Shown here: positions 20,108-21,805 of the stretch, one piece after another | How positions within the stretch are numbered: position 1 is the stretch's first letter | How the letters are laid out: every line of letters starts with the position of its first letter | NCBI GenBank assembly: GCA_048938295.1 | Contig: JBHLMI010000024.1 | Span: 1 to 32,000, forward strand | Source of the DNA: Promethearchaeota archaeon | Lineage (GTDB): Archaea > Asgardarchaeota > Hermodarchaeia > Hermodarchaeales > Hermodarchaeaceae | Direction: 5' to 3' | Length of the DNA stretch: 32,000 nucleotides | The notes under the pieces: model-generated | Told to the model about the DNA's origin: nothing | The model's input: the letters and a program-made list of their open reading frames with translations, nothing else | Databases searched by the model: none | Translations under genes and position numbers: made by a program

Positions 20108-21805
20108 TCATCTGCCAATCTTACCAATGGGATATTTTCGTCGGTTGAACCGGTGACCACAGCTGGGGCAATAATTTCGTTTTGCTAACCATTCAAGCAT
20201 ATGATTCGAATGAGCGAGAACTTTGCACTTCGGACAAAAGAGAACTGGATCATCTTTACCGATGACTTGGCCACAAAATAAGCAAAAATGTGGATGACTG
20301 GTACACTTAATACAATGAAGATTAGACCTTGGGTTCAGTTCAGCACATTTCATGCAAGGTAATTTGCCCCGTAAGATAGGTGACAACTCATCAATTAACC
20401 AAGGAGTTAAAAGTGCCCTTTTAGTTACTCGGCGTTTCGGTTCAACCCAACTTTGTCTGAGCTCTCTTCGACTACGTATTAGCATCAAGTAGGCACCAAG
20501 AAGCATGAGAATGGCAAGACCACCACCAGTACTAATTAATCTAAAATCTGGTGGACCATATTCAGGTGTTGGAATATATTCCGGACTAGTATCGGGGACT
20601 CGTATTGCTAAAGCCATCGAGTGTGAATTATAGAAGTCCTCAATGTGTCCATCCGTCAAACCTACTATGATGAAATCTCCATTCGGGGCTTGGACTATGG
20701 ATCGACCTTCATCATCGTTGTCTGTGCCATAACTCTTCATCCACTGATATTCACCTTCACTGGTTAACCGGATAAGTAACAAATTATTCGATCTATCTGA
20801 GGTGTCAAAGGTTTGTCCTGCTATCGCATACCCTCCATCTTGGCATTTTGTAATTACATAACCACGATCAAATAATATGCCACCAAATGTTGTCTCCCAA
20901 AGGACAATACCATTCCCATGAATTAAAGCTGCAAAGCCATCGGGAATCATATTCTCGGAATTTGCAGTGCTACCAACAAATGCATACATTTCTGTTTCTG
21001 ATTCGATGATATCATAACATATATCAGGCATTGGACCGCCAAGAGTGTAGTTCCATATTTCGACTCCATTTGCATAGGTCTTTACGATCCAAGCGTCTTC
21101 CTCCCCCGCGCCAAAACTTTCAGTTGAACCTGCTAAATAGAATTCTTGGCTAGGTGTTTCGATAAGAGAATAACAGATATCAGGAGCATTTCCACCATAG
21201 GTCCTGTTCCAGAGTTGGGTGCCTTCTTCGTCAGTGCGGACGAAGAAATAATCAGAATCATCACTGCCATAGTTTCGTTGAAATCCAGCTAATGCGAATC
21301 CATCGTTCTGGCATTCAACTAATGCCATTCCTTGTTCATAAGAAGAGACTCCACCATAAGTTCGATACCACATGGTTTGCCCTTCCTCATCAGTACGAAG
21401 GAGCAGGACATCATGATTATTTGAGGTTGTGTAGCCAATTACAGCAAATCCACCTGGTTGACATTCAACCACTTCCATTCCGCCTTGCGAGATATATTCC
21501 TGGAAAAATCTCCGCCATACAACTTCTCCATTCTCTCCTAACCGCATTAAAAAGATAGACCCGCGACCCTGAAAAATACCGGTTCCCGTGGCTAGATAGC
21601 CACCATCGCTACAGGCAATAACTGAATGGAAGATGTTTTGTCCTATTCCTAAATCCTCAGTCACGGTCCAGATTTGGTCTGAACTCACGAGACTGCTACT
21701 TGGGTTATTGAGTGGGGCTGGTTGTATCGCACTGGATGAAACGAGGTTTAATGCAAGGCTTGATAAAAGCAAACAAATGGTGAGTAGATATCTCAACCTC
21801 CGCAA
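20108..21805 (-). CDS. Single-pass membrane protein: beta-propeller ectodomain, TM, zinc ribbon and RING-like finger
   Basis: Signal peptide, seven propeller repeats, TM LISTGGGLAILMLLGAYLMLI, CMKC-x10-CIKC, then CLFC-x12-CPKC-x4-HSNH-x10-CPSC. Confidence 0.85.
   Translation of the reverse strand: MRRLRYLLTICLLLSSLALNLVSSSAIQPAPLNNPSSSLVSSDQIWTVTEDLGIGQNIFHSVIACSDGGYLATGTGIFQGRGSIFLMRLGENGEVVWRRFFQEYISQGGMEVVECQPGGFAVIGYTTSNNHDVLLLRTDEEGQTMWYRTYGGVSSYEQGMALVECQNDGFALAGFQRNYGSDDSDYFFVRTDEEGTQLWNRTYGGNAPDICYSLIETPSQEFYLAGSTESFGAGEEDAWIVKTYANGVEIWNYTLGGPMPDICYDIIESETEMYAFVGSTANSENMIPDGFAALIHGNGIVLWETTFGGILFDRGYVITKCQDGGYAIAGQTFDTSDRSNNLLLIRLTSEGEYQWMKSYGTDNDDEGRSIVQAPNGDFIIVGLTDGHIEDFYNSHSMALAIRVPDTSPEYIPTPEYGPPDFRLISTGGGLAILMLLGAYLMLIRSRRELRQSWVEPKRRVTKRALLTPWLIDELSPILRGKLPCMKCAELNPRSNLHCIKCTSHPHFCLFCGQVIGKDDPVLFCPKCKVLAHSNHMLEWLAKRNYCPSCGHRFNRRKYPIGKIGR

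Follow-up and report, generated by a model that had tools for sequence, protein, structure and literature searches.

The reverse-strand gene at positions 20108-21805 of the stretch of DNA analysed here (the window, 32,000 nucleotides of contig JBHLMI010000024.1 from a Promethearchaeota archaeon) encodes a 565-residue protein, P0001, that is probably a membrane-anchored RING E3 ligase working with the ubiquitin and E2 of its own genome, as judged from sequence comparison and predicted structures. P0001 joins a signal peptide and a seven-bladed β-propeller, through one transmembrane helix, to a tail with a zinc ribbon and a RING finger. The finger is a cross-brace RING of a known archaeal family, a paralog of it lies in the ubiquitin operon of the genome, and that genome encodes a full ubiquitin cascade. 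[quoted passage not shown]

The tail carries a predicted cross-brace RING of the archaeal srfp family

The finger occupies residues 508-549 (20159-20284, minus strand) and is a C4H2C2 variant, C508-x2-C511-x12-C524-x2-C527-x4-H532-x2-H535-x10-C546-x2-C549, that includes the segment LEWL (W539) and a Pro immediately after C546 (P547). It is preceded by a zinc ribbon, C484-x2-C487-x10-C498-x2-C501 (20303-20356, minus strand), whose Cys residues are invariant in orthologs and which also recurs in family members. A sequence-only reading of this DNA had described a CxxC-x10-CxxC ribbon and an eight-ligand finger with LEWL and C-P, and both are present as it had put them; residue-to-base arithmetic (C484 starts at 20356, C508 starts at 20284 and C549 ends at 20159) returns exactly its positions for the ribbon (from 20356) and the finger (20284-20159). 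All 12 ligands together with W539 and P547 are invariant in eight database orthologs of 31-67% identity. No other part of the protein is as well conserved between orthologs as the RING, at 48-60% identity compared with 37-46% for the ectodomain.

The finger is not an isolated arrangement of metal-binding residues. A search with the 111-residue tail against 1.84 billion representative sequences returned 400 proteins at E ≤ 1e-3, and the identical 42-residue ligand spacing recurs in 127 of the best 150 representatives, which argues that it is no chance pattern of Cys and His. The predicted E2 face of the P0001 finger consists of F510, between the first two ligands, W539, four residues after ligand 6, and P547, after ligand 7. 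Across the 127 relatives with the exact finger the loop-1 position is Val, Ile or Phe in 123, the Trp is present in 118 and the Pro in 126. The sequence-only reading had assigned this Trp and Pro to an E2-binding surface; both are where it placed them, F510 can be added to them, and each position is kept in more than 90% of the family. Of 133 family members inspected, 52 have the ribbon directly before their finger.

An alignment of the fingers of 100 relatives (A2) was used both for matching to Pfam and for a profile search of PDB sequences. Prok-RING_1 (PF14446) is matched by 99 of the 100 at E ≤ 0.01 (best E 2.9e-13) and zf-RING_2 by 97 (best E 7.4e-10). Among all PDB sequences the profile ranks the RING-H2 E3s RNF24, EL5, Arkadia, RNF126 and RNF165 (E 8e-9 to 1e-6) at the top, together with RNF4, AMFR and synoviolin; ZNRF3, RNF13 and RMR1 stand lower in the list (E 8e-4 to 3e-3, compared with 8e-9 to 1e-7 for RNF24, EL5 and Arkadia). 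By homology, the finger is thus assigned to the known archaeal srfp/Prok-RING_1 family. Prokaryotic RING families were reportedly defined by Burroughs, Iyer and Aravind in 2011. Aligned by hidden Markov model (HMM) to a classical C3H2C3 RING, the family has a C-x2-C knuckle in which the second Cys corresponds to canonical C3 and the first replaces canonical His4, and its ligand 6 is a His rather than the canonical Cys.

The ribbon is treated here as a generic zinc ribbon. Its own matches, to the double zinc ribbon entries DZR and Zn_ribbon of Pfam, are sub-threshold. The spacing C-x2-C-x3-N-x6-C-x2-C of an NZF/RanBP2 finger fits P0001, but orthologs do not keep the Asn, and neither the T-F signature for ubiquitin binding nor the upstream Trp of that class is present.

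Structure prediction gives the same answer for the fold. In an AlphaFold2 (AF2) model of residues 470-565, built from 52 aligned tails, the predicted local distance difference test score (pLDDT) is 92-96 over the finger, which superposes on the RINGs of RNF165, RNF38, RNF12 and RNF13 with root-mean-square deviations (rmsd) of 1.1-1.8 Å over 46-51 residues and Z scores up to 7.6. The VIA-align list is headed by RNF165 (Z 7.6, rmsd 1.8 Å, 49 residues) and continues with RNF38, RNF12, RNF13, RMR1 and U-boxes. Foldseek, searched with the ribbon-RING tandem (residues 480-560; 20126-20368), places the C-terminal RING modules of IFT-A (WDR19) and GATOR2 (WDR24, WDR59 and MIOS) in its top rows and after them the isolated RING-H2 domains of EL5 and RNF165 (rmsd 1.1-1.7 Å). 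From the Foldseek and VIA-align matches we conclude that the modelled finger is a cross-brace RING and very probably not a PHD finger.

The same searches bear on whether the finger might instead be a reader of the PHD, FYVE or LIM type, or a zinc finger that binds nucleic acid. A resemblance to PHD exists: the spacing C-x2-C-x4-H-x2 across ligands 3-6 is that of PHD fingers, 15 of the 100 A2 members match PHD weakly (best E 1.9e-4), and one Foldseek row is PHD6 of MLL3, at a probability of 0.54. Among the 50 VIA-align rows listed there is no PHD, an absence that does not exclude the family. Ligand 6, however, is His and not Cys; the residues before C546 are Asn-Tyr, with no Trp two positions before ligand 7; the helix Trp and the C-P at ligand 7 are those of a RING; RING families prevail in the searches of Pfam, of PDB sequences and of structures; and a chromatin reader would make little sense on a membrane tail. 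We regard a reader or nucleic-acid-binding finger as very improbable. The sequence-only reading had itself set a PHD, FYVE or LIM fold against its RING assignment, and the model comes closest to RING-H2 E3 domains, with few and weak PHD matches.

A complete ubiquitin cascade and the case for E2 binding

The sequence-only reading would have fallen with a genome devoid of ubiquitin and E2. The assembly (2.52 Mb in 66 contigs, 91.6% complete) encodes ubiquitin, a catalytic E2, an E1, UEV-Vps23 and a JAB protein, the last on contig C1. The others lie in a compact ubiquitin-ESCRT cluster at C53:1563-7822 (locus L015), whose gene identities were confirmed by Pfam. Its ESCRT-I/II part comprises, in order, Vps22/36 (EAP30), a 97-residue open reading frame (ORF), Vps28, UEV-Vps23 and a 178-residue coiled-coil ORF. 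There follow, divergently, RING, ubiquitin, E2 and E1, with the E2 and E1 ORFs overlapping by 25 nt. The ubiquitin (C53:5127-5372, 46 bits) ends in Gly-Gly and has no propeptide, the E2 (C53:5570-6031, 113 bits) has the catalytic HPN...C, and the E1 (C53:6007-7071, 211 bits) carries a C-terminal ubiquitin-like domain. The opposite strand of the cluster encodes a Yip1 protein whose N-terminus bears a zinc ribbon.

The operon RING (C53:4797-5123, 108 residues) scores above the zf-RING_2 cut-off and has a ligand spacing identical to that of the P0001 tail. The two match with an E value of 2.9e-7 in a search of the whole genome and of 6e-10, at 34% identity, in pairwise BLASTP, and on this sequence evidence the operon RING is a paralog of the P0001 tail. 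Operon RINGs of this kind are active enzymes. The srfp RING of the Caldiarchaeum operon, for which the peculiarity of a "C3 shifted by two residues" was noted, is an E3 in vitro that needs a loop-1 Ile (I30), a helix Trp (W58) and a C-terminal Arg, and its R69A variant established that this linchpin Arg is required for full activity (PMC5654768). The operon RING of Helarchaeia is likewise an E3 in vitro and ubiquitylates UEV-Vps23 (bioRxiv 10.1101/2023.07.25.550441). The equivalents of I30 and W58 in P0001 are F510 and W539, so that both determinants are retained, as is P547.

The distribution of the family is consistent with a role beside E2. Among 151 genomes sampled from the phylum, Prok-RING_1 is matched in 122 and E2 in 109; every taxonomic family with E2 has Prok-RING_1, and families without E2 have no RING matches or single weak ones. 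None of 14 control genomes reaches the cut-off for Prok-RING_1 or for E2. Since the relatives are not independent, this co-occurrence is a matter of consistency and not a statistical test. In a closed genome of the same phylum (G029) there are 27 Prok-RING_1 matches, many of them in ORFs of 190-840 residues and clustered at about 1.68-2.28 Mb, which is a lineage-specific expansion.

Several observations weigh against P0001 being an active ligase. Taken alone it falls under every Pfam gathering score (zf-RING_2, 22.4 versus 27.3 bits), and residues 502-557 reach 21.4 bits (E 2.5e-4) on Prok-RING_1, for which the cut-off is 29.1; with 99 of its 100 aligned homologs matching at E ≤ 0.01, membership of P0001 in Prok-RING_1 rests on transitive homology. 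The linchpin position is not occupied by Arg or Lys, as the sequence reads C549-G-H-R with Gly at +1. In the family the residue after the last Cys is Gly in 50, Lys in 23 and Arg in 18 of the 127; it is Arg in the operon RING and Gly in most orthologs of P0001, where its role might be taken over by the basic residues that follow at +2 and +3. Among the orthologs three (L024, L026 and L027) have Glu in place of ligand 6 (H535), and in a fourth (L022) the helix Trp is lost from a segment that reads TRQGFGEG, so the E2 face is not strictly constrained across the genus. These substitutions could be either tolerated ligand variation or a decay of E2 binding in some lineages. The gene also has no ubiquitin genes near it, and its context therefore gives no functional support. 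Finally, the propeller belongs to a very large repeat family, with 2152 matches among 8000 scored candidates, that is a very common surface module.

The missing linchpin Arg and the ligand and Trp substitutions of some orthologs would fit a ribbon and RING that serve as a non-catalytic zinc scaffold, for oligomerisation or for docking of the surface protein to cytoplasmic partners, with no transfer of ubiquitin; this is largely the role of the RINGs at the C-termini of GATOR2 and IFT-A subunits. Such a role would also fit the leading place of WDR19 and of WDR24, WDR59 and MIOS among the Foldseek matches of the tandem, and the score of residues 502-557 on Pfam Zf_2nd_IFT121 (24.5 bits at a cut-off of 25). 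However, the loop-1 hydrophobic residue, the Trp and the Pro are kept in P0001 and in more than 90% of its family, the finger by itself fits best the catalytic RING-H2 domains solved with E2~Ub, E3 activity has been demonstrated for the type of its operon paralog (PMC5654768), the family and E2 are found together across the phylum, and outside the RING the IFT-A and GATOR2 matches diverge to an rmsd of 4.9-11 Å. A purely structural tail is on balance quite unlikely.

Architecture of P0001 and its genomic setting

The gene is an unbroken ORF of 565 codons, read on the minus strand from a TTG start at 21805 to a stop at 20108. The public gene call (P0002, 526 residues) starts 39 codons downstream and omits the signal peptide; because orthologs keep an equivalent hydrophobic N-terminus, the 565-residue form is the better gene model. 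Residues 1-26 (21728-21805) resemble a signal peptide, with a basic n-region, a hydrophobic Leu-rich core (hydrophobic window 4-22) and SSSA. The ectodomain contains seven copies of a repeat of about 50 residues and forms a seven-bladed propeller over residues ~46-403 (20597-21670). A Pro-rich stalk connects it to the single transmembrane helix at residues ~423-447 (20465-20539), which is marked by a Kyte-Doolittle window at 423-441 and keeps its position in orthologs. The basic linker that follows (residues 448-483; 20357-20464) opens with the motif S-R-[RK]-E-[LI], common to orthologs and to the RING-less protein encoded next to P0001, and its stretch RSRRELRQ...KRRVTKR places 9 Arg or Lys among the 20 residues after the helix. 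The 75-nt intergenic region upstream (21806-21880) contains TTATATA (21828-21834), 22 nt 5′ of the TTG start of the propeller-RING gene, a position that suggests a promoter of its own with a very short or absent leader. A search of sequencing runs listed DNA metagenomes of sediment, soil and mangrove, two of them possibly of the source sample, and no RNA run.

The AF2 model of residues 27-422 (61 sequences; model m5cc5cff3fc2d) has a pLDDT of 90.7, a pTM of 0.90 and 28 strands arranged as seven four-stranded blades. Its top match in the PDB is the CylK propeller (TM-score 0.77-0.80, about 21% identity, E 6e-20), followed by the seven-bladed Photorhabdus lectins PLL and PHL (TM-score about 0.6), whereas a structure search of the Swiss-Prot part of the AlphaFold database returned generic propellers only. 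The HMM of DUF5122, the "delta-60 repeat", does not match P0001 and scores 18.3 bits on the RING-less neighbour, for a cut-off of 27; several propeller homologs do carry PF17164 or bear the name delta-60 repeat protein. The repeat family is common in archaea and bacteria and typical of secreted and surface proteins.

Signal peptide, propeller, a single transmembrane helix and a basic juxtamembrane segment had all been recognised in the sequence-only reading, and each is borne out by the sequence, by the 28 strands of the model or by hydropathy. The features of the sequence also predict the propeller to lie outside and the ribbon and RING in the cytoplasm, because a signal peptide is followed by N-x-T sequons in the blades, within a W-N-x-T-Y-G-G blade motif, by positive-inside charge after the helix and by 12 Cys and His ligands that would need a reducing compartment. 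A finger on the outer face, which would have undone the earlier proposal, thus appears improbable given the signal peptide, the charge distribution and the Cys-rich zinc modules.

Of 14 other genomes of the genus, 12 have a full-length ortholog that includes the RING tail, and a search of other genera returned none. One ortholog (P0023), from a genome named "Candidatus Thorarchaeota archaeon", has a tail identical to that of a same-genus ortholog (L025). In the genus genomes examined the gene always lies between an HdrA-MvhD fusion (816 residues; 21881-24331, minus strand, in the window) and a polyferredoxin (482 residues; 17140-18588, minus strand), which flank the propeller genes. The flanking redox genes are 75-93% identical across the genus and the propeller-RING gene 36-46%, with the closest genome, at 85%, as the exception; in effect a surface gene that evolves fast sits between the two members of a conserved redox gene pair. 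Beside it the window encodes a tandem RING-less paralog of 456 residues (18657-20027, minus strand; BLASTP E 2e-39) with a signal peptide, propeller, transmembrane helix and a basic tail of 13 residues. This paralog is collinear with P0001 through the stalk, the helix and the S-R-[RK]-E-[LI] motif, and its tail (SRKEIKHRIRD..) has a Lys that is kept in four orthologs; in roughly half of the genus genomes it comes directly after the RING gene. One may speculate that the RING protein has it as a partner or substrate. Further downstream, 2 kb from the two single-pass propeller genes, lies a gene for a rhomboid intramembrane protease (15938-16633, minus strand; Pfam E 2e-28).

This setting could also be that of an active E3 that is no signalling receptor: the propeller would be an abundant surface protein or adhesin, and the RING would serve its own turnover or quality control by auto-ubiquitylation and subsequent removal, with no ligand-regulated output. 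A propeller repeat that is so widespread as an extracellular module in archaea and bacteria is consistent with such a protein, as are a divergence from the flanking genes like that of exposed surface proteins, the neighbouring paralog with the same ectodomain plan, and the lack of a signalling partner encoded nearby. The chemistry is the same as in the proposal of a membrane-anchored ligase acting through the Ub/E2 system, the two differ in purpose, and nothing here separates them; the fusion of the tail to unrelated ectodomains (PPC, FG-GAP and PQQ), however, fits a modular logic of sensor and output at least as well. We consider self-turnover as the sole purpose of the RING somewhat unlikely.

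Membrane-anchored RINGs in Asgard archaea and their counterparts elsewhere

Besides P0001 the genome contains five further fingers of this family. Two are soluble, the operon RING and a 92-residue protein (C41:101449-101727), and three are anchored by an N-terminal transmembrane segment, at C5:58591-59025 (144 residues), C8:54462-54968 (168 residues) and C50:1459-1983 on the minus strand (L010, 174 residues). The C5 and C41 copies have Tyr in place of the RING Trp (LEYL), and the C50 paralog has Glu at ligand 6. Transmembrane segments precede the finger in 74 of the 127 representatives with the exact finger (~58%): a single N-proximal anchor is present in 19, multiple spans in 34, a type I-like arrangement in 14 and one distal transmembrane segment in 7. 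According to the Pfam entry for Prok-RING_1, its bacterial versions carry transmembrane helices. The survey of ectodomains fused to the same tail that the sequence-only reading had proposed finds others that recur, namely PPC domains and FG-GAP or PQQ propellers in the type I-like members, and it extends to other Asgard lineages, since two type I-like members are named in public records as Atabeyarchaeum/Atabeyarchaeia and as another Asgard lineage. The ectodomain-transmembrane-RING plan is therefore not unique to P0001, which adds a new architecture to an archaeal family of RING E3s that was already known. A literature search for Asgard or other archaeal proteins of this plan, which was not exhaustive, found none.

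In the mechanism that we propose, P0001 would be a type I plasma-membrane protein of an Asgard archaeon, with its propeller facing outward and one helix across the membrane. The cytoplasmic ribbon and cross-brace RING would recruit a ubiquitin-charged E2 supplied by the RING-Ub-E2-E1 operon and direct ubiquitin to lysines near the membrane, whether those of P0001 itself, of the RING-less tandem paralog or of further membrane proteins. These marks could then be read by the UEV-Vps23 and ESCRT machinery of the same genome. A binding partner of the propeller, possibly glycans or surface structures, would set the place and time of ubiquitylation.

More broadly, and tentatively, receptor-type transmembrane RING E3s may form a diversified class in Asgard archaea, one that would link what happens at the cell surface to the ubiquitylation of membrane proteins and to their sorting by UEV-Vps23 and ESCRT. 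Its members would possibly share variable ectodomains (propellers, PPC), at least one transmembrane helix, a zinc ribbon and a RING of the srfp type. The ubiquitin-ESCRT clusters of Asgard archaea are well documented, and reconstitution of their E1/E2/RING cascade has been achieved; as substrates, only heterologous Rad50 and UEV-Vps23 have so far been shown. Membrane-anchored RING E3 paralogs, some of them with large and fast-evolving ectodomains, are concrete candidates for the missing step of cargo selection. If they act in this way, ubiquitin-dependent selection of membrane cargo by a receptor-E3 logic predates eukaryotes. In its layout P0001 is an archaeal counterpart to the ectodomain-transmembrane-RING plan of RNF43/ZNRF3, GRAIL and RNF13.

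The closest relatives of the finger are the archaeal srfp RINGs of Ub-E2-E1 operons, with which P0001 has in common the finger family, the ligand spacing and the shifted C3. Unlike them, the RING of P0001 is the tail of a 565-residue type I membrane protein, joined there to a large ectodomain and an additional ribbon; it lacks the linchpin Arg, is encoded outside the ubiquitin operon and by itself scores under the Pfam cut-off. In its fold the ectodomain is like the propellers of the CylK type, the "delta-60"-like propellers and the Photorhabdus PLL and PHL lectins; CylK also has a catalytic N-terminal domain and an active site, and there is no evidence for either in P0001.

The IFT-A (WDR19/IFT121) and GATOR2 (WDR24, WDR59 and MIOS) subunits match the ribbon-RING tandem at E values of 2e-4 to 5e-3 and 25-29% identity over 72-87 columns and, like P0001, unite a β-propeller and a C-terminal RING in one protein. 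Unlike P0001 they are soluble and coat-like, with an α-solenoid between propeller and RING and both domains in one compartment. The resemblance may reflect only the rarity, in the PDB, of a ribbon directly before a RING.

In domain order P0001 agrees with the PA-TM-RING and receptor E3s of eukaryotes (RNF13/RNF167, GRAIL/RNF128, RMR1 and RNF43/ZNRF3), as all have a signal peptide, an ectodomain, a single transmembrane helix and a cytosolic RING-H2-like finger, and the RINGs of RNF13 and RMR1 superpose on the P0001 finger with an rmsd of 1.2-2.3 Å (Z 5.8). The eukaryotic group, however, carries a PA domain and C3H2C3 ligands, whereas the ectodomain of P0001 is a propeller with no PA match in Pfam, and a zinc ribbon precedes its C4H2C2 RING. 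Its RING is no closer to those of the PA-TM-RING proteins than to RNF24, EL5 or Arkadia, a comparison for which a 50-residue domain is too short to resolve relationships. The sequence-only reading had proposed a possible analogue or precursor of the RNF43 and GRAIL architecture. The analogue stands on domain order; a precursor appears less likely, with an ectodomain unrelated to PA and a RING of no special proximity. The likeness to PA-TM-RING proteins is one of architecture, homology of the whole proteins is not supported, and on present evidence convergence or modular reuse seems a better account of the common ectodomain-transmembrane-RING plan than ancestry.

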